Positions 13,325 to 32,000 of a stretch of DNA of 32,000 nucleotides are shown here, piece by piece (position 1 is the first letter of the stretch; every line of letters starts with the position of its first letter). The stretch covers positions 60,001-92,000 of the forward strand of contig NJBF01000002.1 in assembly GCA_003144275.1 (NCBI GenBank), read 5' to 3'. Made by a program: the position numbers and the translations under genes. The notes below the pieces were generated by a model, which saw only the letters and a program-made list of their open reading frames with translations, searched no databases and was not told the origin of the DNA. The DNA comes from Candidatus Heimdallarchaeota archaeon B3_Heim. Its GTDB lineage: Archaea > Asgardarchaeota > Heimdallarchaeia > Hodarchaeales > Hodarchaeaceae.

Positions 13325-15688
13325 TTGACCGAGGCTATAGACGATATGCCTTCTCCTCGGGAATTGGGAGAAATGATTGTTAATGGGTTATATAACCCAG
13401 AAACAAACAATATAGAGAGCTGTATAGATGAGTTACTCGCTTACATGCCTGAAAGTTTTCCTCGTAAAACAGCTGAGCTCCAGATTCAGGCCATAATATC
13501 CTATCGAAATAATAAATCCGAACCTAAGAAGAAGAAAAAGCGTAAAAGGAAAATTGGACTGAGGGAATTTCCTTCCAAGGAACCTACTGACGATGAGACC
13601 CGAAAAAGCGCTCTTCGTTTTGCTTTGAATTGGTTTGGAAGGAACGATCAGAGATATTTTGTCAGATTAATTAATGAGATTACTAATAATTTTCCTAAAG
13701 CAAATTATACTCAAGCGGAATCTCGTTGGATTGCTACTCAAGCTTTACATAAATACCAACGAGCTATCGACGCTATTCCTACTTTTAAGACTGCTCAAGA
13801 TCGCTTACAAGAAAAGAGGAGTTTTTTCTCGTTAAAGTCCGCTAGTACACCTCGGGTTATACCTGAAATCGGAAAAAGAATAGATTCTAGCGAAAGTAGA
13901 GACAAGATTGAGACTGATAGTCTCAAAAATCTCAAAAATGAGACTGAGTATAGACAAGATTCAACCTCCAAAGTGAGACTTTCTCGAGGAGGACATCCAA
14001 AGTATAGACAAGATTTACTCCCCAAGAAGAAAAAACTTGATCCTAAACATATTACTATATTAAAGAGATTATTGACGAATAATTATCCTTGTCTCTTCCG
14101 TGAAGAAACTGGTATATCTAAAGCTACCTTTTATCGAAAGCTCAAGCAGTTGGAGAAATGGGAGTTAATCCTCAAGGTCAATAATGGAACTCCAGCTCAA
14201 TATGAAATCAATCCCAGGTTGAAAAATTCGAGTCTCAAATTCCTGGTGGAGGGTATCCCGTCGAGTCTCATTTCTGGATCCACGAGCAAATCTTCCCCGA
14301 TTGCCGAAAAACCCAATTTTGTGCAAGATTCTGAGTCTCACTCTCAGTCTCATTTTTCGGAAATTTCCTCCAATGTACAAACCAATGGATCTAACTGTGA
14401 GACCCGATATGAGTCAACGAGCAAAACTGCCCCGATTGGAAAACCTGACGATCTGATCCAAAATGCTCATGATGCTCAGTCTCATTCTGAGTCTTACTCA
14501 GTCTCAATTCCTTCCGATTCTGAAAAACCACGAGAAAATTTTGAGACTACCCATGAAACCACGAGCAAAAAACCGTCTTTTGAGGAATTGATTGCTAAAT
14601 TTGATCCTCATCACATTCGCAGCCATGATTATCTATATCTCTGTAAAATTCAAAGGCATTCCAAAGATTTTTTCCAACAGCTAGAAAAAACCAACTGGTT
14701 AGAATCCAAGGAGGGAATGAGGAACTGGAAATGGTATAGAGGGTCCTTGAAACTCCATAATATTGAATGTCATTTTCATATTTACACTAAAAAAGTCACT
14801 ATTCAAATTTTAGAAGTAACCAGTCCAGATCCATTCAGTAATAATGCCATTGCTGACGATTTAGCGGTCCAAGTGACTGCATTTCTGGAGGATAAATATC
14901 CTGGGTTAGCGTTGTATGACCTGAAACGTCGTTCTCGCTTAGAAATCAAGAAAACCCATCACGCAATCCCCAACCATCCCATAGCAATTCGAGCGTTTGA
15001 ACTTCAATACAATTCTCATGGAGAACGCTTTGGTATTGATAATTCGGACGACAAGAAAGAACTCGAATCTCACGCCCCAAAGTATTCGACAGAGGATATT
15101 GATAATTACGTTGAAGACTGCGATTTTAAAGCCAAAAACGAGTATTGGTTCCGAGACTCAGCAAAGGACATTGTTCGCAATGGAAAAACTATAGACAAGA
15201 CAGTCGAGGTTCTGAATAAAGTTGACGAAAATCAACTTAAAACTGCTGAATGTCTCAAAGAAAATTCTGAGAATAGTCATCAATTAGCTGCTGGACTTAG
15301 ATCTCATAGCGAACTTATTGACTCCATGTCCAAACGGGAAGATGAACTTATAAGACGAAATTTTTCTTTACAGCAGACCGTCTTCACTTTAGAATCTCGG
15401 ATTACTGAAATTGTTAATTCTGGACCACATTTCACTCGAGATCCTGGAAAAGCACGGGTGAGTAGAGACAAGATTGAAGTTGTTCTCCCAAGACTTCAAG
15501 CTCTCATTTTGAGATCGATCCAGGATCATCCTGGACAAACCCGAAAGGACCTAGCGAAAAATTGCCAAGTCTCTCCAGGTTCCGTCAATGGGACGATTCC
15601 TCGGTTAAAGCGGAAGGGATTCATTTACGAGCATCAATCTAAACTGTTTTTCAAAAATAAACCACATAGAGGAAAAAAATATGTATGA
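13325..15688 (+). CDS. Multi-wHTH protein, probable replication initiator
   Basis: Internal wHTH (FREETGISKATFYRKLKQLEKWELI) and C-terminal wHTH (ILRSIQDHPGQTRKDLAKNCQVSPGSVNGTIPRLKRKGFI). Also an N-terminal helical unit resembling PriCT-1, a Ser-rich repetitive linker and a coiled coil. The function is inferred. Confidence 0.6.
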   Translation: MTEAIDDMPSPRELGEMIVNGLYNPETNNIESCIDELLAYMPESFPRKTAELQIQAIISYRNNKSEPKKKKKRKRKIGLREFPSKEPTDDETRKSALRFALNWFGRNDQRYFVRLINEITNNFPKANYTQAESRWIATQALHKYQRAIDAIPTFKTAQDRLQEKRSFFSLKSASTPRVIPEIGKRIDSSESRDKIETDSLKNLKNETEYRQDSTSKVRLSRGGHPKYRQDLLPKKKKLDPKHITILKRLLTNNYPCLFREETGISKATFYRKLKQLEKWELILKVNNGTPAQYEINPRLKNSSLKFLVEGIPSSLISGSTSKSSPIAEKPNFVQDSESHSQSHFSEISSNVQTNGSNCETRYESTSKTAPIGKPDDLIQNAHDAQSHSESYSVSIPSDSEKPRENFETTHETTSKKPSFEELIAKFDPHHIRSHDYLYLCKIQRHSKDFFQQLEKTNWLESKEGMRNWKWYRGSLKLHNIECHFHIYTKKVTIQILEVTSPDPFSNNAIADDLAVQVTAFLEDKYPGLALYDLKRRSRLEIKKTHHAIPNHPIAIRAFELQYNSHGERFGIDNSDDKKELESHAPKYSTEDIDNYVEDCDFKAKNEYWFRDSAKDIVRNGKTIDKTVEVLNKVDENQLKTAECLKENSENSHQLAAGLRSHSELIDSMSKREDELIRRNFSLQQTVFTLESRITEIVNSGPHFTRDPGKARVSRDKIEVVLPRLQALILRSIQDHPGQTRKDLAKNCQVSPGSVNGTIPRLKRKGFIYEHQSKLFFKNKPHRGKKYV
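13895..14570. repeat. Iteron-like array inside the Rep-like gene (candidate replication origin)
   Basis: Eleven exact AGTCTCA/TGAGACT heptamers, three 15-bp AGTA(G/T)AGACAAGATT repeats (13895, 13947, 14001), two hairpins, and three ACGAGCAAA repeats spaced 135 and 144 bp apart. Confidence 0.75.
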
Positions 15689-16172
15689 AACCAAACCCCA
15701 AAATTTAGCTCTCTATCTGCCTACCACTGGAGCAATTGGAACCCTTTTTCTCTACACTATTGGGTATTCAATTCGTTCGTTTAAGACAGTGGTTAATATG
15801 TTATTGAAACACGAAATCGAGAAAGTCATCGATATTCGTTTCTCTCGCTACAGTCGGAATTCCGATTTTAACGGACAAGACCAGAACCTAGCGATGAAAT
15901 TCCTTGGCTATGGAATCGACTACGAACATAGACGAGAATTCGGGAATCCTAATTCTCTTTGGAAGCTTTTCAAAGACAATCGAAGAGCTTGGCGCTTAAA
16001 ATTCTTTTCCCACTTTACGACAGGCGAACTCCTTCTCTATCAAAGTCTCTTTACTCGTCAGAAAACGGTCCTAATGTGCTCTGAGAAAAAAATTCGTCAT
16101 TGTCATCGCTTAGAAGTTGCGAATTGGCTTTCTCAAGGTGCTAATCCTGAGATCCGGGTGATTCATCTATGA
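15681..16172 (+). CDS. DUF488 family protein
   Basis: YTIGYS, VIDIR...YS and LMCSE...CHR motifs typical of DUF488; overlaps the upstream stop. Confidence 0.88.
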   Translation: MYETKPQNLALYLPTTGAIGTLFLYTIGYSIRSFKTVVNMLLKHEIEKVIDIRFSRYSRNSDFNGQDQNLAMKFLGYGIDYEHRREFGNPNSLWKLFKDNRRAWRLKFFSHFTTGELLLYQSLFTRQKTVLMCSEKKIRHCHRLEVANWLSQGANPEIRVIHL

Positions 16173-19359: not shown

Positions 19360-19584
19360 ATGACTGAACAATTGAGTAACCACTTGATCCTAGAAAAAAT
19401 TGGTTCATCAAAACTCATCAAGGTAATCGTTCCCCCGAAACGAGCGATCTTGATTTCTGACGAAAATTCCCTGTTATTAGAACAATACAAAGACGACGTG
19501 GACTATACAATCTCTATGGCTTTGAATCGGGCGTTAGATGAATTGCGTGAATTGAAAACCAATCAGCGAGGACATAGCAAATGA
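19360..19584 (+). CDS. Small protein with RHH-like C-terminal half
   Basis: RAILISDENSLLLEQYKDDVDYTISMALNRALDEL fits the RHH pattern; first gene of the coupled operon. Confidence 0.65.
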   Translation: MTEQLSNHLILEKIGSSKLIKVIVPPKRAILISDENSLLLEQYKDDVDYTISMALNRALDELRELKTNQRGHSK

Positions 19585-19898
19585 TTTCAAAACATAAAGT
19601 AACATTGTTTGTATTAAACCATGGCTCATTGCTTCTAAAATGCATTTTAACTTTCTTTGTCATTTATGCAGGGATTCTTCTAGTCTTTATTTTGACTGAC
19701 TCTGTTCCTCCTGACCCCTTCCTAAAAATTATAGGAATATTTATTGTTATTTTCACTATTCTATTCAGTTTTGTTATGTATACCATAGAAAACAACACCT
19801 ATCAATGGCACGAATATTATCGAAGATTTTTCACTAGTTTAGAGGAAAAATACCCCCAAATTCTTGAAGAATTATCAAAAGAAAGAGAGAGGAAGTGA
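19581..19898 (+). CDS. Two-TM membrane protein
   Basis: Two long hydrophobic segments; ATGA overlap upstream and GTGA overlap downstream. Confidence 0.85.
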   Translation: MISKHKVTLFVLNHGSLLLKCILTFFVIYAGILLVFILTDSVPPDPFLKIIGIFIVIFTILFSFVMYTIENNTYQWHEYYRRFFTSLEEKYPQILEELSKERERK

Positions 19899-22800
19899 CT
19901 CCTGTGAGAACTAAAATGCGAAAAAAAGTAATTCCACCACTAGTATTATCGATAATAACGTTTTCATTCCTCGGGATGATGGTCCAGAAATCGATTGACT
20001 CGAATGAAGTGTCAGTTCGAGACCCAATTTTTGTTGAGGTTTCGCCTCTTAGGGGTGAAAATCAGACTTATTCTCGTCACACAAATTATAATAATAAATA
20101 CTATTATGACAAAATAGAGCAAAATACTCAAGTTGCAGGTTTTGGATCTAGCATAATAGATTCCAAGGTCTCGTCCGATATAACTGTTGATTCGGAGGGT
20201 AATGATACTCGTATTTGGATTGTTGATCCGACAGGGCAGATTGATGGGTATTATATTGATATTAATAGTAGCTATCAAGAATTAAACGCATCAAGAGGGC
20301 AGACTTACCAACATTATTATAATACTTCAAGTAACGAGTATTCTGTTTATTCTTCATCATTAGTTAATAAAACAGGTATTATTGATAATACTGATTGGGT
20401 TACAGCAGAAGAATACCCTACTCAGTTTATTATTCGATTAACAGACGGCTCTATTATTACTTCTAGCAATTTAACACAAATTTCTAATTATCTTTCGTCA
20501 TTAGATAATACAACGATCTGGGCAGTAGGGATCGAAGGAATTGCTGGTGTTATGGCTTTCTATCTAAATTTTGCCGATTTTGACTGGGGACATGGGCAAT
20601 ATCTTTATTACCCACGATTATTGAATGGACAATTGCCTAATTTTAACCAGCCACTTTATGCGATCTACCCACATCTCTTTGCCAAACTGACTGGAACGTG
20701 GTATGATAAGATTTTAAATGATCGTTCTCTTTATCAGGGAGTTGTAGATCCTCGAAATACTTTACATACTAGTATAACGGATGATACATTTGAATTATAC
20801 TATACTACATATGGGATAACGATTATGGGAAGAATTTGGGACTTTAAACACGGTTTCAAATTTAACCTTACTGATCAGTTGTTCCACCAGATTACTGAAT
20901 TTAGGTGTAGGAATCAGGACTTCGAGGACGTCGGGATGGGATATGAAATAACCAGTAGTCCGCAGAGCGATGGAACTCCTTATCAGCCAGATCATTTTCT
21001 TTTAAGTAATGAAACTGACGAGTTGTCGATAGGTATTGCACAAGCATGGCAAGCTGGAATCTATTTGGAAGATTTTTATTCAAGAATAGAAATAATTTCC
21101 GAAAATAATGAAACTATGGTATTTACGTTCTCTGATATGGAGGACGCAGGGTTTACCCAAAAATATCTAGAACTTCATGATCAACTAATGCCTGATGGCT
21201 CGACCCGAAAGACCTTATTAGCAGGGATGTATGGCTTTGGTGCTTACTCTGTCAATACTATTATTGAAATAGATCCTGTCACAGGGACAAAATATTCAAC
21301 GGACGATTCAGATCTCTATATAGACGGATCCACGTGGAGAAATGTAGATAATTTTATATTCAATGGATATTACAACGATGCGGATGAGATGCGTTCTTTC
21401 ATTGCATTCAATACAGGCATAACTACCGTGGTATTAACAACATCTGACGAAGTAATTCAGTGGAGGTTCGGATTGGAAACCATGGAGGCAACGGAAGCAG
21501 TATGGGCGAAAGCCTACAATATTCGTGGGAATTACGATTCCAATACTGCTAAAGAGTCCTCAAATAGTTACTCCGATACAGCGTATTATGGCCCAAATAG
21601 ACAGATATGGCTAGATGGAGATGATGCTTCTGGCTATTCGATTTGGCGTAATGACGATTCTATTATCGATGACTGGATGGATAATCGAGAAGCAGCAGAT
21701 AATTATATTTCAATTCGTATGTGGCCAATTGGTGCTGATCCAGGAGAAAACGATCGGATTGGAGTATATGACCAAAGTTTTGCTGGCAATGCTTACGCTC
21801 CGAAGATGTCGTTTACGTATACTGTGCCTAATACTAGTCCAGTATGCACAATAGATGCCTATCCATCGGGTGATCAATATGCAGGTATTGCATTCTCCGC
21901 AACAATGACAGGTACCGATGCTGACGGGCAGGCGGACTTGAATATTTTTTATATGGTATTTGGGGATACGGCTGGAGGCACTAATAGTTTTCGATTATAT
22001 TATGATTCCGACAATTTTGTAGATGACACGCAATTTACGGCATTAATAACAGTGAATACTGCCAGTCCATATAAATATTCAGCTACAGGTATACCTAATT
22101 CTATTACTAATGGTTGGCAGGTCGTTTGGACGTTGGTTGTTAAATTTGGGTATGCTTATTACGATGATGGTGGAGCAGGGTATAATTTAATGGATGTATG
22201 GGCTCTCGTAAGTGATGATTCAGCTGCCAGTTCTAGTTGGAAGGATGAGCAATCAGCAGCGGATATTGAAGATGATTTAGAGGCTGTATCTTTAACTGTT
22301 TCCTATCCTGATGCGTATGAATATGGAGGAACAGCAAGTCAGATAGATGATAGTGATTGGTTTGCTGGTGGTCATACAGCCACGGCATCTGGATCTATAG
22401 AATACGAAGGTTTTAGTCAAACATTTGATTCAGATTATGACGCAGGAGATGGCCAAACTGTTCAGTTGTGGTTTAATGCAGGAGATCTAGGTGATGTATA
22501 TGATGATGCTGATATTGACGCTGGAGCATACTCTATTGCCTTTACACCGACTGCAGGGACGGATTATACTGATGATACGATTGACGCAGACTGTGATTGG
22601 GATGTGACGATTCAAGGATCTACTGGGTCTGATGTTACAGCAGCTGGAATAGCAATAGAATCTAGTAGGGATAATGAGTATCCAGATACTACATTTTCGT
22701 CTATTACTGAAAATGCACCGCACACGTATATCTATTATCCTGGAAGTGGTCAAACAGTCTATTTTAGTGATCTTATGGGTGCTACAGATCAGTTATTTAC

Positions 22801-25030
22801 TGTTGTAGTTACTGCATCGGATGGATCTGGTTCTGATATATATGCAGTCTCATTTTCTGCTTGGGATGATGAGGTCTTATGGGATGATACAACGGATCCT
22901 TATTCAAGACAATACTCAACGGACTCTACAGAATCAGTTGGTTCAATAAATATTTATGCTAAGGATAATGTTGGTAATGCTGATGCATCAGCAGTCACTA
23001 TAACGATGACGGAAGATCTAGTAGACCCAACTTTAACTGATGCTATGTCTGGATATTCTGAAGGAGGAGATGTTGATGAGATATTTGGAGTAATAGCAGA
23101 CAACGAGGCATTCTTCTCTGATTCTTTTGACACTGACGGAACGATGACTTTTACTGCCACTGGGACAGACGGAGGAGCAGGAGTAAGAGGAATAGATTTT
23201 GGGAGTTTTGGAGCGGACAATCCTGCTGAAGACACAGAATCACCTTACACTGGTCTTTATACGATCAATGATGATGACAGCACAGGATCAATTACTGTTG
23301 TAATTTATGATAATGTGGGAAATGATGCTAGTGGTTCTATTACGATGACGGAAGATGCAGTAGCACCAACAGTTACTATAACATGGAATTTTAACGATAA
23401 CGATTGGGCTATCATGTCTGGATCGGACTATGGCTGGACTAATATCGACTACACTGTTGTTCAAGATACCGCAAGTGGGCTACAAACAGTTTATCTAAAT
23501 AGTTATGACCATTCTGCTAGTGCTTGGAAAACTGCTAGAACAATTGCTTCAGGACTAAATGGTGATACCTCGTCTAAATCTTATTTAGATCAATATAGAT
23601 ATCATACGGATACTGGTGAAACGACAGGAACATACGTCGATGACGAATATGATAATACACAAGATAAATATTATGCTTTTGCAGATGATATGGTCGGAAA
23701 TAGAGGAGGAACAGAACAATATATTAGATTGGATCGGACAGCTCCCACTGGACACTCAGTTGTTATGGAATCAGGAACTTTTTATGCAGATATAACTAAT
23801 GATAACACTCCATTATTGACTGGATCCGATGCTAGTGATTCAGGATCTGGTTTATCTGCTACTCCTTACTACTTTGCTTGGAGAGTGAATGGAGGAGGGT
23901 GGTCTAATTCAGGTTATCAAGCTGGTAACACTTGGAGTCCAACAGTTACTGTTTCATCTATAGATTACGATTTTACCCTTCAAATTCAGGATGTGGTAGG
24001 AAACACAGGAGTTTATGCTAATGATTATGAAAATACTGTAGACCTAATAGACCCTGCTTTTACCAATATTGGAGGCTCTGAATCTTCTGGTTATCTCTAT
24101 GCAGTTGGAGCAACTATAGATAATGGTTATTACTCAGATAATATGGGAGCTACTCCTACAAACTTTTTAGTGATCGGTGATGTGACTGATAATTTTGGTC
24201 TAGAAAAGGCAAATGGGTCGTTAGCTTTTAGTGATACTCCTGATGATACTAGCATTACTGGCACTTCTGATAGTTTTAGTCTTACTTATACAATAACAAG
24301 TGGGTATTCTGGTGCCAAGGTAGTTACTCTAACTCTTTATGATCAGGCAGGAAATTCAGTACAAGCCACCTATACTTTCTATGAGGACAACATACCACCA
24401 GAATCTAATGTCATTTATACTAATGAATTATATAATTCTGGGATTCCAATAACCGTATCCAATCTAGCCACTGATTCTGGAAGTGGTATAAGAACCACGG
24501 ATGGGTACGAATGGTGGGTAAACCAAACAAGAATATATGGAACACAATTTACAACAAGTAATTATTACACTTGGAATATCTACAACTTAACGAATTTAGT
24601 ATTTTATGGTGCTGTTTATGATAACGTAATGAATTTTAGTAATGCTACTACTAAAACAGTAATTTATATTTTTATTTTGATTATAACATCTCCACAACCA
24701 GAGATCGAAGAAATAGAGACGACCGAATACTATAATGACGAAGATGTCTACTTGGATGATACCACCACAATATATAAGATAATTAACGTGGATTATAACG
24801 ATTTTACATCTGTAGAAGAATATGATCTAGAACTAGAAGAGAATATTATTATGAACGAAGAAATTAACGTAACAGAAAAACCAGATGAGATAAAAACAGT
24901 TGGAGTAATCAAAGTAGAAAAAATAGAATCGATTACGAACATTAGATATACAATTGGGACTATTTGCTACTTTGTTATGGTTTCTATCAATATTATGTAT
25001 AACAGTAACAAGAAAAGAAGGAGAAGATGA
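19895..25030 (+). CDS. Giant acidic surface protein/adhesin with Ig-like repeats, 1711 aa
   Basis: N-terminal signal/TM, Asp/Thr/Gly/Tyr-rich beta composition, recurring D-x-x-x-P boundaries (EDLVDPT, EDAVAPT, LDRTAPT, DLIDPAF, EDNIPPE), C-terminal TM followed by KKRRRR. Confidence 0.88.
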   Translation: MTPVRTKMRKKVIPPLVLSIITFSFLGMMVQKSIDSNEVSVRDPIFVEVSPLRGENQTYSRHTNYNNKYYYDKIEQNTQVAGFGSSIIDSKVSSDITVDSEGNDTRIWIVDPTGQIDGYYIDINSSYQELNASRGQTYQHYYNTSSNEYSVYSSSLVNKTGIIDNTDWVTAEEYPTQFIIRLTDGSIITSSNLTQISNYLSSLDNTTIWAVGIEGIAGVMAFYLNFADFDWGHGQYLYYPRLLNGQLPNFNQPLYAIYPHLFAKLTGTWYDKILNDRSLYQGVVDPRNTLHTSITDDTFELYYTTYGITIMGRIWDFKHGFKFNLTDQLFHQITEFRCRNQDFEDVGMGYEITSSPQSDGTPYQPDHFLLSNETDELSIGIAQAWQAGIYLEDFYSRIEIISENNETMVFTFSDMEDAGFTQKYLELHDQLMPDGSTRKTLLAGMYGFGAYSVNTIIEIDPVTGTKYSTDDSDLYIDGSTWRNVDNFIFNGYYNDADEMRSFIAFNTGITTVVLTTSDEVIQWRFGLETMEATEAVWAKAYNIRGNYDSNTAKESSNSYSDTAYYGPNRQIWLDGDDASGYSIWRNDDSIIDDWMDNREAADNYISIRMWPIGADPGENDRIGVYDQSFAGNAYAPKMSFTYTVPNTSPVCTIDAYPSGDQYAGIAFSATMTGTDADGQADLNIFYMVFGDTAGGTNSFRLYYDSDNFVDDTQFTALITVNTASPYKYSATGIPNSITNGWQVVWTLVVKFGYAYYDDGGAGYNLMDVWALVSDDSAASSSWKDEQSAADIEDDLEAVSLTVSYPDAYEYGGTASQIDDSDWFAGGHTATASGSIEYEGFSQTFDSDYDAGDGQTVQLWFNAGDLGDVYDDADIDAGAYSIAFTPTAGTDYTDDTIDADCDWDVTIQGSTGSDVTAAGIAIESSRDNEYPDTTFSSITENAPHTYIYYPGSGQTVYFSDLMGATDQLFTVVVTASDGSGSDIYAVSFSAWDDEVLWDDTTDPYSRQYSTDSTESVGSINIYAKDNVGNADASAVTITMTEDLVDPTLTDAMSGYSEGGDVDEIFGVIADNEAFFSDSFDTDGTMTFTATGTDGGAGVRGIDFGSFGADNPAEDTESPYTGLYTINDDDSTGSITVVIYDNVGNDASGSITMTEDAVAPTVTITWNFNDNDWAIMSGSDYGWTNIDYTVVQDTASGLQTVYLNSYDHSASAWKTARTIASGLNGDTSSKSYLDQYRYHTDTGETTGTYVDDEYDNTQDKYYAFADDMVGNRGGTEQYIRLDRTAPTGHSVVMESGTFYADITNDNTPLLTGSDASDSGSGLSATPYYFAWRVNGGGWSNSGYQAGNTWSPTVTVSSIDYDFTLQIQDVVGNTGVYANDYENTVDLIDPAFTNIGGSESSGYLYAVGATIDNGYYSDNMGATPTNFLVIGDVTDNFGLEKANGSLAFSDTPDDTSITGTSDSFSLTYTITSGYSGAKVVTLTLYDQAGNSVQATYTFYEDNIPPESNVIYTNELYNSGIPITVSNLATDSGSGIRTTDGYEWWVNQTRIYGTQFTTSNYYTWNIYNLTNLVFYGAVYDNVMNFSNATTKTVIYIFILIITSPQPEIEEIETTEYYNDEDVYLDDTTTIYKIINVDYNDFTSVEEYDLELEENIIMNEEINVTEKPDEIKTVGVIKVEKIESITNIRYTIGTICYFVMVSINIMYNSNKKRRRR

Positions 25031-28000
25031 TAATGAAGTTAAGTAAGACATTCGCTCTAATGCTATCATTAATCGTTATATTTTCATTTTTGAACAGCTT
25101 TAATTTACTTGAAAATGAAAATATTGTTGAAACAACAACTATAGACAAATTGACAGCAGAAGAAAACACTAACTCCGATTTAAACACAGAAACACCAGAA
25201 ATAAATAACTTTGAGAATAATTTTTTAGAGGAAAATGATCCAATTTCTGCCTCTGTTCAAGAAGTGGCTTGGAAGACTGCAGAGACAATAAAGACTGATC
25301 ACTACTTTAATAACCAAACTCCAGAAATCTTGAGTGTTTGGGCTGGTTATTCAGAAGATACATATAAAGATTCGGAACTTATATGGGAAACAGAAGTTGA
25401 TGATGTTAATTGGGATGAAATATTTAAACTAGATATAGATAATAGGTCCATATTTTGGGATAATAGTCTTACATTTATACGTCAGAATGATACCTATGCG
25501 TATAATATGTCCATGCTAGCAAGTAACTTACCACTTGGGTCAGTACCACTTCCGAGCAGAGCTACATTCTTTGAATTTAACCTTAGAGTGTTAGCACGGC
25601 ACGCAGGAACTTTCTATGTAAATACTTTCTATACGACAACAGACGAAGATGGTACTGCGCCAGCAGAATACGTAGAAATTTACTCAGACATTGCCTTCCC
25701 AGTTGATGAAAATTATATGGATGCTGAAGGGTATCTATATTACCGTTACCAAGTAAAAACTGTAGGTGTAAACACTGCAGGTTATGGGTTTACTGGTGTA
25801 AATATAACGAATAAGGTATTCAACGTCAATTCACAACTCTATGAGACAATAGACATTGATACAATTGGATTAGTTGAAGAAGCATGGTTGACAGATCGTA
25901 TAGAAATAGTAGGATTACAATATACTGTTTTCGTCCCTGACGTTGTAGAATCATATCCAAGAGCTGAGAGACTACAAACTAGCTCCGAAACCTACAATTT
26001 GAAATTAAAAGTAGATAGTTTTGACTATGGTACTCAAATTAAGATATACACTCCTACCAGCATTGCTGGCGAGTTTTATGAGTATGTTATTGATCCAGTA
26101 CCCTCTAGTTTCGGATATGATGCTTCTAACAATCTTTGGATTAACAATACCGTTCCTACAATATATCAAATCACGTTTCAGATAACAACAGAGAATAATT
26201 ATTATGCTGTTTACGAAACAACACCTCGGTATTTATATGATCCGAATTTTGAAGGCACGTGGCAATACGATTGGGCAAATACGTCAAGTGATGAATGGAC
26301 TGTTGATTTAACGTCAAGTATCATTTTTGATGGTTCACTTGCTCTCAATTTAACTTCTGACAACGATATAAGCACCTACTGCTCACTCGACTCCTATGTC
26401 TATCCTGCGGAATATACATTCACCTTCGCCTACTACAGGACAACTAGCAGTCCTATCTATTTCTATTGGTGGGAGAACGATGGTTGGCAATACGAAGTAC
26501 TAGAAACAATTACAGACAGGTGGATTAAACATATAGAACGATATAATATCACTGGTGATACTGGTGGCTACAATATTGCCTTTGTTACCTCATCTACCAA
26601 TCAAGAAATCTTTATAGATGATTTTAAGACTTGGGAAGCAAATGGTCAGGTCAGAACTACTGGTTATGCCAATAATCTCATGGAGACTGGTATGTTCGCT
26701 ACTATTCGTAATATTGATTTATACAATAATCCTGCCGTACCATACCATCCAGTAAATATTAAACTACGAGACAGATCATCAGATTCAACCATGCTTTCAT
26801 ACAATACTATTACAGATGCTAATGGTCGAATACACGTCTCGTTCACACTACCATCCTCTAATCAAATGGAAGAAATGGAGTACACATACAGAATCACTTC
26901 ATTAATCACCAATGAATATACTGATTCACATTTCACTCCTATACAAGTAGAGTATTACGACTACTTCATGACAGAGAATTATACCAATTTTGGTATCGGA
27001 GGCATTGATTTTACCGAGAACTGGGATGACGGAGCCACCTACACCAATGCTAATGATAATCAAACACTAGGAGTAAATATGATTAGTCCTATGGGTACGG
27101 TTACCGATTTTAGAATTAAATTTCATGACCTAGATGACATTGATGCCGATTATTACGAATTTGTTAGTATAAGATTGAGGACAAATGTCAGCGATTTGTC
27201 AGTATCTCTCTATAACCAAACTGATCAATATATTGGTACTTTAACGAATTTACCATTAAGCACTGGTGAATTAGATTGGGTTACGGTTACGTGGAATCTT
27301 ACTGAGGTTTCCTCTTGGTTTGGAATACAGGGAGGATTTGAACTCAGATTTGATGAAGTCGGAGGTGACGGTCAACCAGAAGCGGATAATTTCGTTTGGA
27401 CAGACCAAATTCGTCTTTATTATATTGATGAACCTTTACTCATTGATACTGCCACATACGGGTATTTGAGTACTGTGTATAACCAATTTGTGTATTATGT
27501 AGTGATTGACGGCACCGCTCAACAATATGTGTTTGATTTAGATCCATTTTTATACGATTTAACAGTAGATAGTCATGAAATAACCATTATTCCATTCCTC
27601 GATTTAAGCAGGAGACATTTATGTTATATTCACGGTGAAACCATAACCTTAGAGTATGATGTGGCCGAACCAGGACTCATGAAAATTATCTACCATGACC
27701 AAAGTGGGTATATTCTTGATTTTGATATGTTTAAGACCTATATTGATGATGTTCGACTGTATGAGCAGTATGTCTATTTCCTAAATACATCCATGGTCTT
27801 TAATTTGACGGTAACTGATATCTTTGATAATATCGTTTACCAGAATACTACTGCGACCTTTGAATACTTCAGGGAGATCCAAATTACTCTGTATTCCATA
27901 AAAATTCAAAACCAACAGGAATATCCAATCTGGATTCAGTTGAAACGAGGCACTAAGACCTTTTCTGAGGCTGTATTCCCATTTGAAATTGTAGAATTCC

Positions 28001-30372
28001 GTTTAGAGACGGATACCTATGATGTGCGTGTTAATTATACTACTGTAAATGCAAACAAGGAAGTTGTCTACAATGGCACCTACGTTACCTACCAATATAC
28101 GGTCACCAAGGATACTGCCATTTTTATCACTGGAACCAGTATTCAGGATGTGTTCAACAACGTAGTGCAGGTAGCACAAGATATAGATAATGTGAACGCC
28201 TCATTATCCTCTCAAATAATCGATGTAGATATCCATATCAGCAACGTAAATACCAGCATTACTGATCAAGTGGTAAGTGTTGAAATATATCTCGATAACG
28301 TAAATACCACCATAGGAAGTCAACTGGTAAGTTTAAGTAGTGAAATTAGTAATTTACAAACAAATGTTACTTTACAATTTGTAGATATTAATAGCACCAT
28401 ACTCAATGTCAATAGTTCAATCTTTGCCCAGACTGTATCAATATTATCTGATTTGGATAATGTAAATAGCACTATTTATGCTCAAACACTTACACTCCTC
28501 TCAGATATTTCCAACACCAACTCTACACTCTATACTCAGACTGTCACTATTTTGAGCGATATAACCAACATGAACAGTACCATTTACTCGCAAACAGTCA
28601 CCATCTTGTCCAATATACAAAATATGAATTCCACTATTTATGATCAGACAGTAAACATAATTAGTAATATCGAAAATATCAATTCTACTCTATACACCCA
28701 AACAGTTACAATCCTCTCCCAGTTGACCAATAATATGTCAACCATTTATAGCCAAACTGTTTCTATCCTTTCTGACATATCCAACACTAATTCAACAATA
28801 TATGCACAAACTATCTCTATAATTTCGCAATTAACGAACAATATGACTACTATTTACGATCAAACACTGTCCATCATATCAAACGTTTCCAATACCAATA
28901 GCACTATATATTCGCAAACATTAACCATTCTTTCGCAATTGACAAACAATATGTCCACTATCTATACCCAGACCGTTACAATCTTATCAGACATATACAA
29001 TATGAATACAACTTTGTATAGTCAAACAGTGACTGTACTCTCAGATATTCAAAATATCAACTCTACTCTCTATACACAAACCATCTCAATTCTATCTAAT
29101 ATAGAGAATGTGAATTCGACCATTTTTAATCAGACAGTAACTATCTTAAGTAACATTTCGAACGTGAATTCTACGATTTATACTCAAACACTAAGCATTT
29201 TATCAACTATTCAGAATACCAATTCTACTCTCTATAGTCAAACAGTTTCGATCCTGTCTGATATTTCTAATATGAATTCCACGATTTACACTCAAACGAT
29301 TAGTATTCTGTCAGATATTCAAAACATAAATTCCACGATTTACACTCAAACAATCGAAATTCTCTCGGAAATCCAGAATACCAATACCACCATCTTTAAT
29401 CAAACAATTGAGATTCTTAGTAACATCGAGAATACCAATACCACGCTCTTTAATCAAAACATTCAGATTCTATCCGAATTACAAAATGTCAATTCGACTA
29501 TCTATCATGCCACTTTAGAGATCATTACTCTCATTGGTGAAATGTATGGCATTTTTCGCGTTCATTTCTCCATTATCGATTCTCTCGGGATTGGATTACC
29601 CTGGGAAACTGTTTTACTTATGGTGAATAATTCTCGACACTTCGATCAAGAACTTTATATTTCTAATAATACATTCTTGCAATTAGCGGCTTTTGATTGG
29701 TTTAATATTCAGCTCTGGGAGGAGAATTATACCATTAGAGAACGAACTGAGGTCAATATTACCATTAAGTTGTACTTACTCATTCTCAAAAATAATGGGA
29801 ATTATACTGCTTATGTCAAGATTTATCGCGCTGGGCAGTTAGGGTTGAATGTCACTGTATCGCCAGGGAATTCAATCGGGGTTAGAATGACGGAAGAAGT
29901 CTATTCGTATAAAGTCTATTATTTCAAAGCAGAACATCAAAACGTGACCACTCGTGCGGATGAAGCGAGCGAGATCACGAATTGGGGCAAGACCCTCTAT
30001 AATGTAGGGAGTTTTCGAGTTAGTGCTCAGTTACCGCGTGTCTTAGATGTCTCAACTCCAACACTTACCCCTCCCGCGTTAGAAGGCTGGGCGAAATTCT
30101 GGGATGGATTTCTGTCAGGCATGACGATTGCGGCGATAGGAGCGGCTATTGCTTCGTTCTTTGTTTTTACGTTTCTGAAAGAAAGTTGGTATGGAACCAA
30201 AGCGGTTGTTTTGGATAAAGCCGCGGATGATTCTCTCTTTAAACCCCAAAGTTTGGAAAGACATGAGGATAGGTTGCAATCGCGATACTATCGCAACCAA
30301 CAAAGTTACCAGAAAAAACGCACTTGGTTACAGAAAATTAAACGAATATTAGGATTTACTGATCATGAATAA
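25027..30372 (+). CDS. Giant surface spike/stalk protein with 25 x 18-aa repeats, 1781 aa
   Basis: Signal peptide, beta-sandwich-like regions (YDPNFEG...EIFIDDFK resembles CBM4/9), repeat stalk, C-terminal TM (FLSGMTIAAIGAAIASFFVFTFL) and basic cytoplasmic tail. Confidence 0.9.
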   Translation: MIMKLSKTFALMLSLIVIFSFLNSFNLLENENIVETTTIDKLTAEENTNSDLNTETPEINNFENNFLEENDPISASVQEVAWKTAETIKTDHYFNNQTPEILSVWAGYSEDTYKDSELIWETEVDDVNWDEIFKLDIDNRSIFWDNSLTFIRQNDTYAYNMSMLASNLPLGSVPLPSRATFFEFNLRVLARHAGTFYVNTFYTTTDEDGTAPAEYVEIYSDIAFPVDENYMDAEGYLYYRYQVKTVGVNTAGYGFTGVNITNKVFNVNSQLYETIDIDTIGLVEEAWLTDRIEIVGLQYTVFVPDVVESYPRAERLQTSSETYNLKLKVDSFDYGTQIKIYTPTSIAGEFYEYVIDPVPSSFGYDASNNLWINNTVPTIYQITFQITTENNYYAVYETTPRYLYDPNFEGTWQYDWANTSSDEWTVDLTSSIIFDGSLALNLTSDNDISTYCSLDSYVYPAEYTFTFAYYRTTSSPIYFYWWENDGWQYEVLETITDRWIKHIERYNITGDTGGYNIAFVTSSTNQEIFIDDFKTWEANGQVRTTGYANNLMETGMFATIRNIDLYNNPAVPYHPVNIKLRDRSSDSTMLSYNTITDANGRIHVSFTLPSSNQMEEMEYTYRITSLITNEYTDSHFTPIQVEYYDYFMTENYTNFGIGGIDFTENWDDGATYTNANDNQTLGVNMISPMGTVTDFRIKFHDLDDIDADYYEFVSIRLRTNVSDLSVSLYNQTDQYIGTLTNLPLSTGELDWVTVTWNLTEVSSWFGIQGGFELRFDEVGGDGQPEADNFVWTDQIRLYYIDEPLLIDTATYGYLSTVYNQFVYYVVIDGTAQQYVFDLDPFLYDLTVDSHEITIIPFLDLSRRHLCYIHGETITLEYDVAEPGLMKIIYHDQSGYILDFDMFKTYIDDVRLYEQYVYFLNTSMVFNLTVTDIFDNIVYQNTTATFEYFREIQITLYSIKIQNQQEYPIWIQLKRGTKTFSEAVFPFEIVEFRLETDTYDVRVNYTTVNANKEVVYNGTYVTYQYTVTKDTAIFITGTSIQDVFNNVVQVAQDIDNVNASLSSQIIDVDIHISNVNTSITDQVVSVEIYLDNVNTTIGSQLVSLSSEISNLQTNVTLQFVDINSTILNVNSSIFAQTVSILSDLDNVNSTIYAQTLTLLSDISNTNSTLYTQTVTILSDITNMNSTIYSQTVTILSNIQNMNSTIYDQTVNIISNIENINSTLYTQTVTILSQLTNNMSTIYSQTVSILSDISNTNSTIYAQTISIISQLTNNMTTIYDQTLSIISNVSNTNSTIYSQTLTILSQLTNNMSTIYTQTVTILSDIYNMNTTLYSQTVTVLSDIQNINSTLYTQTISILSNIENVNSTIFNQTVTILSNISNVNSTIYTQTLSILSTIQNTNSTLYSQTVSILSDISNMNSTIYTQTISILSDIQNINSTIYTQTIEILSEIQNTNTTIFNQTIEILSNIENTNTTLFNQNIQILSELQNVNSTIYHATLEIITLIGEMYGIFRVHFSIIDSLGIGLPWETVLLMVNNSRHFDQELYISNNTFLQLAAFDWFNIQLWEENYTIRERTEVNITIKLYLLILKNNGNYTAYVKIYRAGQLGLNVTVSPGNSIGVRMTEEVYSYKVYYFKAEHQNVTTRADEASEITNWGKTLYNVGSFRVSAQLPRVLDVSTPTLTPPALEGWAKFWDGFLSGMTIAAIGAAIASFFVFTFLKESWYGTKAVVLDKAADDSLFKPQSLERHEDRLQSRYYRNQQSYQKKRTWLQKIKRILGFTDHE
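28189..29538 (+). repeat. Coding tandem repeat, 25 units of 54 nt; consensus N-x-N-S-T-I-Y-x-Q-T-[VIL]-x-I-L-S-x-I-x
   Basis: Units counted by hand from NVNASLSSQIIDVDIHIS to NVNSTIYHATLEIITLIG, all exactly 18 aa. Confidence 0.95.
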
Positions 30373-30592
30373 AGAGAATTTCACTTCTGCTGGGGCGCTT
30401 ACCAGCGCTATTATTGGCTCTACCCTCTTAGGAGTGTTTTTGGGGTCCCGCTCTGGTGGGATTTATGAATTCGAGATTGGGAACAATTTGCTAACCCTGC
30501 TTCAGCTGGTTTCAATGATATTCGCTTTAGCGTTCTGTGGTTATTTTTGGCTGGAAAACAAGAAAATATCAAAAGAGATGAAAACAAAATGA
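30365..30592 (+). CDS. Small two-TM protein, 75 aa
   Basis: Hydrophobic helices ALTSAIIGSTLLGVFLG and LLTLLQLVSMIFALAFCGYFWL, basic tail; overlaps both neighbours. Confidence 0.85.
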   Translation: MNKENFTSAGALTSAIIGSTLLGVFLGSRSGGIYEFEIGNNLLTLLQLVSMIFALAFCGYFWLENKKISKEMKTK

Positions 30593-32000
30593 TGCAACAA
30601 GAACTATTTACGGACTTAGAGACCTTTTATTATTCTCTTATTGCCATGATCCAGGAAAATGCGGTTCCGTTGATCATTGGATTCGCATTTCTCTGTTATT
30701 TTGGGGCCAATCAATGGCGGAAATCACGTGATTCGCAGCTCAGAAATGTGCGTGAGCATTGGAAAGCGATTACCTCCAAAGCAACAAAGATTTCCTCAGC
30801 ATTTAAAGGCAGGATTGGACTCGTTGAAACGGCTGGCACCATGGAGCTGGAAGGTGATATCTATCTAATTGATTCCGTGACGAATGATGAGTTAATCGAT
30901 TCTGAACGGGTGACAGCGTTACGATTAGAGCTTACACAAGAACAAATTCTCCCCAATCTAGCTGAGAATGAAATTTGTTTTGAGAAATATGAGTTTCGTG
31001 CGCGAAAAGAAAACAAGGACGGCCTTCGGATTGACATCACTAAGGGATCCCTCCAAGAACAACTACAACTACGCTTTAAGGATGAGAAGGAGGAGAAATT
31101 CCGTAAACCTGGTAATTGGGAGTTGAAGGATCGCTGGATTGTCAAAAAATTCACCCGCGTGTTGCCGACCAAAAATGATACGTATGTGTCATTAAGAAAG
31201 ACTCCAAAAGGAGGAGAAATAATTGCATTTCGGCGGCAGGGGATTCAGGAACATGAAACAATTCTCTCTGAAGCGACTCCTCTACCATTAATCGATCTCG
31301 ATCCGAATGTCACCAAGGGGCATCTTCAATTAGCTATGTTTGGATTAATCATCTATGAATTCCTGTTGATGTATACTATTTTTGCGGAACTGGATCCTAC
31401 TTTTCTGCTAGATCGAGCCACCATCCCTTGGTATTTTGTACTAGTGGTCGCGTTTGTAGGAAAATATTGGGTAGACAAAACAAAAATAGCTTATTTTGCG
31501 TATTACCGTGCGTATAGTGGTGCAGAAGAGACCTTCAAGTTGCGTGGTGTCGCAGGCGAGATTTCAACCTACACCACCAAGGTATTTGAAATTGAGTTAC
31601 ATGCCCACCCCGCCATCCCCCTAGCGAATTTACTGAAGTTTAACCCTGAAGATATCAAAGATGAGCGAATATCAGGGTTAGAACAGCGTGTCACCAATCT
31701 TAGTGCCAAGCTTGCCTCTGCCAAGTCGAAACATGATCAGTTATTATCAATTTTACAACATAAGGATCAACAATTAGATCAGTCACGAGAAAAGCATATC
31801 GAAGCATTTGATGATGGAGCCATTTTCGCGTTAACTACTTACCGAGTCAAACAACTAGAGGATGATGGAAAAACTCCGCAAGAATACGTGCAAAAACAAC
31901 AAGGGACTGATACTCTCACGTGGTTCAAAGAAATTAAACCCTTGCTTTTTCTCATTGTCATCGGGGTAGGGGCATTTTTTCTGATTACTAACTTTCTCCA
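30589..32000 (+). CDS. Multi-pass membrane protein with coiled coil (>470 aa, runs off the window; absent from the ORF track)
   Basis: Hand translation is open from ATG 30589 to the window end: MMQQELFTDLETFYYSLIAMIQENAVPLIIGFAFLCYFG... with about four hydrophobic segments and the coiled coil LEQRVTNLSAKLASAKSKHDQLLSILQHKDQQL. Confidence 0.9.
   Translation, partial: MMQQELFTDLETFYYSLIAMIQENAVPLIIGFAFLCYFGANQWRKSRDSQLRNVREHWKAITSKATKISSAFKGRIGLVETAGTMELEGDIYLIDSVTNDELIDSERVTALRLELTQEQILPNLAENEICFEKYEFRARKENKDGLRIDITKGSLQEQLQLRFKDEKEEKFRKPGNWELKDRWIVKKFTRVLPTKNDTYVSLRKTPKGGEIIAFRRQGIQEHETILSEATPLPLIDLDPNVTKGHLQLAMFGLIIYEFLLMYTIFAELDPTFLLDRATIPWYFVLVVAFVGKYWVDKTKIAYFAYYRAYSGAEETFKLRGVAGEISTYTTKVFEIELHAHPAIPLANLLKFNPEDIKDERISGLEQRVTNLSAKLASAKSKHDQLLSILQHKDQQLDQSREKHIEAFDDGAIFALTTYRVKQLEDDGKTPQEYVQKQQGTDTLTWFKEIKPLLFLIVIGVGAFFLITNFL

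Follow-up and report, generated by a model that had tools for sequence, protein, structure and literature searches.

A surface protein with a head, a stalk, and an anchor is a kind already known, from tetrabrachion and SlaB in archaea and from the trimeric autotransporters. The stalks of tetrabrachion (Staphylothermus marinus) and SlaB (Sulfolobales) belong to surface layers (S-layers), are N-glycosylated, and end in a C-terminal transmembrane anchor; they are hendecad-based parallel coiled coils, tens of nanometers long, which bear globular domains. Here, we analyze a protein of this kind encoded in a stretch of 32,000 nucleotides from Candidatus Heimdallarchaeota archaeon B3_Heim (contig NJBF01000002.1, positions 60,001 to 92,000; hereafter the window), in which 25 consecutive units of 18 residues form a long repeat array. 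Like tetrabrachion and SlaB, the array protein has a signal peptide, a long stalk, and a C-terminal transmembrane anchor. It differs from them in that searches found no sequence or profile homology to either (SlaB was only a weak Foldseek match, TM-score 0.08), in its exact 18-residue repeat with one N-X-S/T glycosylation sequon per unit and an invariant N-x-N...Q, and in the beta-sandwich that lies between stalk and membrane. Its helical fold is hypothetical, and no lattice partner is known.

The trimeric autotransporters and the reovirus sigma-1 protein share the head-stalk-anchor logic, coiled coils rich in N, T, S, and I with polar core layers, and a stalk length that varies by gain and loss of repeats. 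Periodicities such as 18/5 and 19/5 occur in stalks of this type (PMC4786415). The array protein differs from the trimeric autotransporters in lacking a YadA-type beta-barrel anchor or head/neck motif (Pfam), in having a single transmembrane helix, and in being archaeal. Because the profile matches to sigma-1 lay above E = 0.01, we regard them as analogy and not homology. What is new in the present protein is the strict 18-residue unit with its invariant N-x-N...Q and a selected sequon per unit, spread through Asgard archaea. Literature searches returned no paper on an 18-residue Asgard repeat or glycosylated stalk.

An 18-residue repeat with a sequon in every unit

A preliminary description of the window had reported 25 exact 18-residue units without indels and a nearly invariant Gln at unit position 9. 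This was borne out, with the frame and coordinates exact, zero indels, and Gln9 present in 24 of 25 units. The consensus of the unit is N-[VTMI]-N-S-T-[IL]-Y-x-Q-T-[VIL]-[ST]-I-L-S-x-[IL]-x. Asn1 occurs in all 25 units and Asn3 in 21; positions 6, 11, 13, and 17 are I, L, or V throughout, position 7 is Y or F in 21 units, and position 14 is L or I in 21. Positions 8, 12, 16, and 18 are polar and variable, with D or N common at position 16. The hydrophobic residues described earlier as recurring at about positions 2, 6, 13, and 17 are not the only ones; positions 7, 11, and 14 are hydrophobic as well, and on a helical wheel they make up two stripes lying side by side. The array contains two Gly in 450 residues and no Pro (Gly+Pro 0.4%; family arrays mostly 0-4%).

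Pairs of units share on average 51% of their residues, where composition alone would predict 12%, and 54% of their bases. When two units have a residue in common, its codon is also the same in only 40% of cases, and at the DNA level Tandem Repeats Finder detected just two short stretches of 54 nucleotides. Based on these identities, the codon sharing, and the scarcity of DNA repeats, we consider the array to be old and kept at the protein level, in agreement with what had been proposed from the synonymous codons.

Units 10-15 (28801-29124) consist of three successive two-unit blocks, a 36-residue super-repeat in which an N-x-N-S-T...SQLT unit is followed by an N-N-M-[ST]-T... unit. These are largely the units missing from a 19-unit orthologue described below, and in many family members the best self-period is 36 and not 18.

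On sequence features, the array protein is a type-I membrane-anchored surface protein of a Heimdall-group Asgard archaeon. The signal peptide, the single C-terminal transmembrane helix, the tail with its net charge of +5, and the near absence of sequons from the tails of the family together place the repeats outside the cell.

Every one of the 25 units carries a sequon, as had been claimed. In 21 units it begins at Asn3. Three units with Met at position 3 (NNMST/NNMTT) have Asn at position 2, so that N-M-S/T restores the sequon, and unit 4 (NLQTNV...), which has neither, has its sequons at positions 5 and 14. In total there are 30 sequons in the array, or 6.7 per 100 residues, vs. 1.95 per 100 elsewhere in the protein. 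The same holds across the family of related arrays described in the next section: 94.2% of 920 units contain at least one sequon, compared to 75.8 ± 0.9% after shuffling within columns, and 175 of the 228 units without the Asn3 sequon have another, mostly at positions 5, 16, 18, or 2. The strongest covariation at lags other than 18 is between positions 3 and 5 and between 5 and 7, which correspond to two alternative sequon registers. Family arrays average 6.6 sequons per 100 residues, against 0.15 in the cytoplasmic tails. Selection for one sequon per unit, acting on it as a sequon, is well supported by these patterns.

The earlier proposal of glycan-coated extracellular repeats thus stands in part. 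The topology puts the repeats outside the cell, the sequon is selected, and the genome encodes a homologue of the STT3/AglB oligosaccharyltransferase (contig C88); the glycan itself, like the occupancy of the array sequons, is predicted. Experiments on an Asgard archaeon have demonstrated glycosylation at N-X-S/T (PMC11284389).

The invariant Asn1 (91% family-wide) falls outside the canonical sequon, forming N-x-N. Candidate roles for it are a ladder or turn residue, an extended recognition element for the oligosaccharyltransferase, or a non-canonical glycosylation site.

A family of arrays in Asgard genomes

A word-indexed search recovered 16 homologues of 1023-2478 residues, one of them annotated Heimdallarchaeaceae. 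With the array as query, phmmer found 207 cluster representatives (50% identity) at E <= 1e-3, 106 of them at E <= 1e-10. We examined periodicity in 155 proteins, comprising 150 listed representatives of these 207 and the earlier homologues. The best self-periodicity was 18 or 36 residues in 138 of the 155, and 143 contained an array at lag 18. By sequence, this repeat therefore defines a large, undescribed protein family in Asgard genomes.

Units were located and topology was counted in a core sample of 84 members. It yielded 1126 units, with 914 consecutive spacings of exactly 18 residues. Only five real phase shifts were seen (-1, +1, +1, +3, and one 11-residue unit), and about 0.5% of approximately 950 unit junctions depart from 18 residues; five shifts are too few to favor either of the folds considered below. 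Apparent spacings of 7 and 11 residues were rejected, as they reflect false anchors within units. In this sample, 73 of the 84 proteins have a transmembrane segment after the array, a median of 204 residues beyond it, followed by a basic tail. Complete proteins contain 4-49 units (54 by the widest estimate) preceded by 601-2789 residues, and the family includes giant proteins of up to 3772 residues.

A profile match was found in 12 of 301 Asgard species-representative genomes and in 8 of 70 genera, and a profile search of 20 further genomes from the genus of B3_Heim gave no match. Based on these three counts, the distribution is patchy. The protein atlas returned no usable match when queried with the array or with the homologue P0030.

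The closest orthologue, P0001, is 64-67% identical and has 19 units compared to the 25 of the present array. Units 1-8 and 18-25 are collinear between the two proteins, and the six whole units that are extra here lie in the middle of the array. The preliminary description had suggested comparing repeat counts among homologues and had proposed that the repeat number acts as a length ruler. The comparison does not support a ruler: counts differ between these orthologues and range from 4 to 54 in the family, and gain or loss of whole units between orthologues means that the stalk changes length one unit at a time and is not a conserved ruler.

Several members depart from the common type. In P0017 (3305 residues, about 50 units; residues 2192-3084), a second type of 18-mer flanks the main array on both sides; it resembles N-S-T-x-I-S-I-Q-N-K-I-S-F-x-D-S-L-L and is more helix-like. 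One junction, as read from the printed sequence, contains a 14-residue (two-heptad) unit. Two genomes of the same class carry strongly diverged arrays: in L003 (G030:C101), the array consists of a super-repeat of 36 residues (DLNLINSSMVSNFIQVMG / DLVQIDSNLASNFTKVFG) that includes a conserved Gly, and in L004 (G038:C1), it is rich in Q, N, and E (NLQTNITLQINDISSEIN). Both retain the 18-residue period and a DxF motif before the array. Finally, P0006 (NCBI MEW5821822.1), which has 17 units together with a signal peptide and transmembrane helix, clearly belongs to the family, and its source is labeled "Cyanobacteriota bacterium"; it probably comes from a mis-binned Asgard contig, with horizontal transfer as the alternative.

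Fold of the stalk

The reading that we prefer, with a probability of roughly one half, takes the protein, topology, and glycosylation described above and makes the stalk an oligomeric bundle of alpha-helices, almost free of supercoiling, with five turns for every 18 residues. A period of 18/5 = 3.6 residues (7+7+4) is an accepted coiled-coil periodicity and lies near the 3.63 of a straight helix (PMC4786415). When family arrays are reduced to binary hydrophobicity, the 3.6-residue (fifth) harmonic is the strongest in 65 of the 69 and outweighs its 2.25-residue counterpart in 68, power at period 2 is approximately zero, and the phase is coherent (R = 0.98). Positions 6, 13, and 17, spaced 7-4-7, are hydrophobic in essentially every family array, and the other slots go to positions 2 and 10/11. 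The result is a hydrophobic seam at 2, 6, 9/10, 13, and 17, or five residues per 18, which continues through the segment immediately before the array ("unit 0").

Covariation adds to this picture. Positions 3, 7, 10, 14, and 18 covary at i+3, i+4, and i+7, and subtypes of the repeat shift hydrophobicity between positions 7/14 and 10, which are neighbors on a helix (i, i+3, i+7) and lie on opposite faces of a strand. After removal of the sequon pairs, the i+4 signal (0.017) is barely above those at i+1 (0.015) and i+2 (0.011), and it is therefore not decisive. Covariation at lag 18 is strong but confounded by duplication history. Diverged arrays in related genomes have coiled-coil-like units such as NLQTNITLQINDISSEIN.

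Weak profile matches point in the same direction. We aligned 47 in-register family arrays, with one window per protein (alignment A3), and the sub-threshold Pfam matches of the 47 arrays are exclusively to helical or coiled-coil families, most often Baculo_PEP_C (31/47), SF-assemblin (30/47), and DUF1664 (24/47), with a best E of 1.6e-7. No beta-helix family occurs among the weak Pfam or PDB sequence matches of the arrays. Baculo_PEP_C and SF-assemblin remain below their curated cut-offs (31.9 bits vs. 38 and 20.6 vs. 30.6, respectively). SF-assemblin has a 29-residue repeat with roughly 3.6 residues per turn, and the likeness to all three families probably reflects periodicity and composition instead of descent. 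Weak profile matches in the PDB were to HA2, the reovirus sigma-1 tail, cavin-1, and FliD, and there was a weak PHROG match to a tape-measure protein.

In a helical stalk, each unit would comprise a hendecad (a = 6, d = Gln9, e = 10, h = 13) and a heptad (a = 17, d = 2), and Gln9 would form a recurring polar layer beside the helical core. The sequon Asn at position 3 would sit on an "e"-like flank, presenting one glycan per 2.7 nm on each chain. From the outside inward, the layout would be a fast-evolving ectodomain, a beta-rich domain, the 25-unit stalk, a beta-sandwich, the transmembrane helix, and a basic tail, such that a glycan-coated rod of about 67 nm would keep a variable head away from the membrane, with its length tuned through gain and loss of whole units. 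We infer the helical fold, the oligomerization, and the spacer or adhesin function of the stalk.

Several observations weigh against a helical bundle, and most of them instead favor the strongest rival, in which the same glycosylated, membrane-anchored protein has an array folded as a parallel beta-solenoid. Each unit would then make one 18-residue coil, with ladders of Asn1/Asn3 and Gln9 and the sequon at a rung corner, and the 25 units would form a rigid rod of only about 12 nm (25 × 0.48 nm). We regard this as a realistic possibility that falls short of even odds. AlphaFold2 (AF2) predicted strands in both of its runs. In the native context (residues 1001-1781), it gave strands of 9 and of 2-4 residues per unit, with a predicted local distance difference test score (pLDDT) of 55-68; with 10 units and A3 as input, one model reached a pLDDT of 95.9 and was all strand. 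VIA-align superposed the latter on CsgA (Z 10.5), UpaB (Z 8.3), and SufB/SufD-type beta-helices (Z about 9, root-mean-square deviation 2.6-3.2 Å over 143-151 residues). The composition is strand-prone (T+I+V+Y 44%, no K or R; Chou-Fasman P(beta) 1.14 vs. P(alpha) 0.94), and in the present array the 3.6- and 2.25-residue harmonics of Kyte-Doolittle hydropathy are equal. The invariant N1-x-N3 and Q9 resemble Asn/Gln ladders, which are established in pectate lyases, leucine-rich repeats, and curli, and small solenoids, the ice-nucleation and antifreeze repeats among them, typically hold to a strict coil length. The alternative sequon positions (2, 5, 16, and 18) are grouped in the unit's polar half, the expected place for the arcs of a solenoid. 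On a helix, by comparison, Asn1 takes a solvent-exposed "c" position that leaves its role unexplained, and N3 and T10 of the present array fall mid-way in its wide hydrophobic arc. The oligomeric state of the stalk and its glycan are also predictions.

The solenoid has difficulties of its own. With A3, AF2 was confident in only one of five models (pLDDT 95.9 vs. 55, 50, 38, and 35), so its five networks disagree, and a bias of AF2 on repeats has been documented (PMC11795689). Family hydrophobicity is nearly devoid of period 2, and the invariant 7-4-7 spacing does not suit coils with two or three sides. The buried face of the strand would be odd-numbered in the present array (Y7/Q9/V11/I13) and even-numbered in the NtNtnIttQlN subtype (I6/L10). 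There is no Gly at the putative arcs, and the weak Pfam and PDB sequence matches lack beta-helix families, as noted above. N-glycans 0.48 nm apart along one edge would presumably be very crowded, compared to a comfortable 2.7 nm on a helix. Known solenoids of the CsgA/FapC, SufB/SufD, and autotransporter types do share short repeats and conserved Asn/Gln with the array, and they superpose on its AF2 model (Z 8-10.5). They differ in that the array has no Gly turns and no sequence similarity to them, its hydrophobic pattern is 3.6-residue and not alternating, and they are not known to carry a glycan on every rung. Foldseek comparison of the AF2 array model to the PDB gave TM-scores of only 0.1-0.2, the solenoid likeness having emerged with VIA-align, and a shape search of the ESM Atlas returned only unnamed predicted repeat proteins.

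The preliminary description had named beta-solenoid models as a result that would speak against its helical stalk. Both AF2 runs gave beta structure, and this first interpretation is, as far as the models go, challenged by its own AF2 criterion and not refuted. The straight 18/5 helical rod proposed there fits the hydrophobic periodicity of the family; the rod itself and its 67-nm length are not established, because both AF2 runs are beta, one with low and the other with unstable confidence. A three-copy complex prediction for a 10-unit segment with A3 scored 0.03 against a mark of 0.42 and gives no answer either way.

A third view, that the array is a mucin-like, largely unstructured glycosylated spacer whose periodicity stems from duplication history and sequon spacing, matches its S+T+N content of 46%, its high sequon density, and the low confidence of AF2 in the native context, but we find it highly improbable given that I/L/V/Y/M/F make up 38% of the array at fixed sites that are invariantly hydrophobic in more than 60 divergent arrays, that just 0.5% or so of the unit junctions are not 18, that units diverged to 54% DNA identity have kept the protein pattern, and that the array, in contrast to mucin-type linkers, has no Pro.

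Domain plan, neighboring genes, and significance

The features of the array gene are summarized in Table 1. There is a 4-nucleotide overlap between its ATG and the stop of the open reading frame (ORF) that precedes it.

Table 1. Predicted features of the array gene, with residue numbers (aa) counted along the array protein and nucleotide positions along the window
Feature	Position	Strand	Basis
Whole gene, a single ORF; type-I membrane surface protein, 1781 aa	25027..30372	+	ORF; 16 close homologue clusters and 207 distant ones
Sec-type signal peptide, aa 1-27, two Lys followed by a hydrophobic stretch	25027..25107	+	Sequence, hydropathy; same feature in 53/84 family proteins
Variable N-terminal ectodomain ("head"), aa 28-845	25108..27561	+	BLAST vs. 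P0001 and P0004; weak Ig-like/CBM leads
Conserved beta-rich pre-array domain, aa 846-1036	27562..28134	+	46% identity to P0004 aa 1247-1451
"Unit 0", aa 1037-1054, TSIQDVFNNVVQVAQDID	28135..28188	+	Hydrophobic register of the array, without the N/Q signature
Array, 25 × 18 aa, aa 1055-1504, one sequon per unit	28189..29538	+	Exact 18-residue cut
Post-array beta-sandwich domain, aa 1505-1640	29539..29946	+	AF2 all strands, pLDDT 72-89 over most of the domain
Membrane-proximal linker, aa 1641-1694	29947..30108	+	AF2, low model confidence
Single transmembrane helix, aa 1695-1717	30109..30177	+	Hydropathy; AF2 helix
Cytoplasmic basic tail, aa 1718-1781, 64 residues, net charge +5, no sequon	30178..30369	+	Sequence

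In the AF2 model, the beta-sandwich spans approximately residues 1510-1635 and is accompanied by a long transmembrane helix; Foldseek searches with this C-terminal part gave only weak matches, to immunoglobulin-like (Ig-like) and pilin domains and SlaB. Unit 0 was modeled as helical with low confidence, and its DVFxN motif is conserved among homologues. BLAST comparison to the homologue P0004 defines a conserved module that combines residues 846-1054 (46% identity) with the array, the domain behind it, and the transmembrane helix; the N-terminal 845 residues are not shared. The pre-array domain is common to family members whose heads differ. Neither the whole protein nor the array matched a Pfam family, and the protein had no significant PDB sequence match. 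Among public sequencing runs, one DNA-type run contained 5% of the query words and no RNA run was listed as a holder, which is uninformative on expression.

The first approximately 300 residues are hypervariable relative to P0001, with 31% identity over residues 9-100 and then no alignment up to residue 300; residues 302-1054 are 67% identical. Residues 1-300 (25027-25930) are thus a candidate recognition tip. The earlier suggestion of a lectin-like head found no support in Pfam or the PDB, neither of which gave a match to the head. A ConA-like Laminin_G_3 domain is present in one homologue only (P0004), and language-model leads to Big_1 (Ig-like) and carbohydrate-binding module (CBM) clusters are below the reliable score. 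We therefore keep the lectin-like head only as a lead.

Immediately upstream lies a gene for a second giant surface protein (19895-25030, + strand; 1711 residues), whose N-terminus is signal-like and whose C-terminal part includes a hydrophobic segment and ends in RRRR. This protein contains no 18-residue array and has no Pfam match, and it is 43-47% identical to a partial orthologue on the syntenic contig L008 over the aligned segments. Just before both giant genes, a small two-transmembrane protein is encoded (19581-19898, + strand), the stop of which overlaps the first of them; it has a sub-threshold match (23.1 bits vs. a cut-off of 30) to 8xMP (PF24838), an octameric membrane protein family. 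Three downstream genes of 508, 175, and 622 residues (window 30547-32000 plus contig C80 90589-94554) also adjoin the orthologous array gene on L008 and are absent beside the homologues P0003 and P0004. In the window (15681-16172) as on the P0003 contig (L009 4353-4796), a DUF488 gene precedes the array gene by a few kilobases, which is a hint of a shared mobile backbone.

On L008, the three downstream genes are 87-91% identical to those of the window, compared to 64% for the array protein and about 45% for the upstream giant; thus, the surface genes diverge faster. As judged from these identities, the pattern is consistent with diversifying pressure on exposed proteins for recognition or adhesion. 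It could also be expected if the array protein served an integrated virus or other mobile element, and not the cell, as its envelope or attachment glycoprotein, with the stalk presenting a host-recognition head from the virion or another structure that the element encodes. The patchy distribution of the family would agree with such an origin, as would the surroundings of P0003, where numerous small ORFs run in one direction and genes for a Dam-type methyltransferase and DUF488 occur. We nevertheless consider it unlikely. No capsid, integrase, or terminase was recognized in the window, no tRNA-Leu attachment (att) repeat of at least 16 nucleotides was found on the contig, and the queries used had no relatives in a phage collection (tblastn) or in IMG/VR (single-protein scan). 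Furthermore, the neighbors of P0003 and P0004 differ, indicating that there is no fixed element.

The cell covering of Asgard archaea is almost a blank: an S-layer seems to be missing from cultured Lokiarchaeia, and one Asgard glycoprotein alone has been characterized (PMC11284389). Models of eukaryogenesis give a central place to contact with partner cells, and the present family is a sequence-defined candidate for long Asgard surface structures. The predicted length of the stalk distinguishes its possible folds (approximately 67 nm if helical vs. approximately 12 nm as a beta-solenoid), and the array is a natural test case for structure predictors, since the periodicity of the family says helix and AF2 says beta-solenoid. 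Taken to its broadest form, the hypothesis is of a phylum-wide Asgard surface fiber: a straight, polar-layered 18/5 coiled-coil rod of 10-150 nm with one N-glycan per five-turn unit at a fixed azimuth, length evolution by whole units, and hypervariable recognition heads. We put this forward tentatively, as possible but doubtful. If it is true, the heads may be encoded by mobile elements or viruses, and the fiber would bring about contact between cells, or between virus and cell, in the lineage nearest to the eukaryotes.

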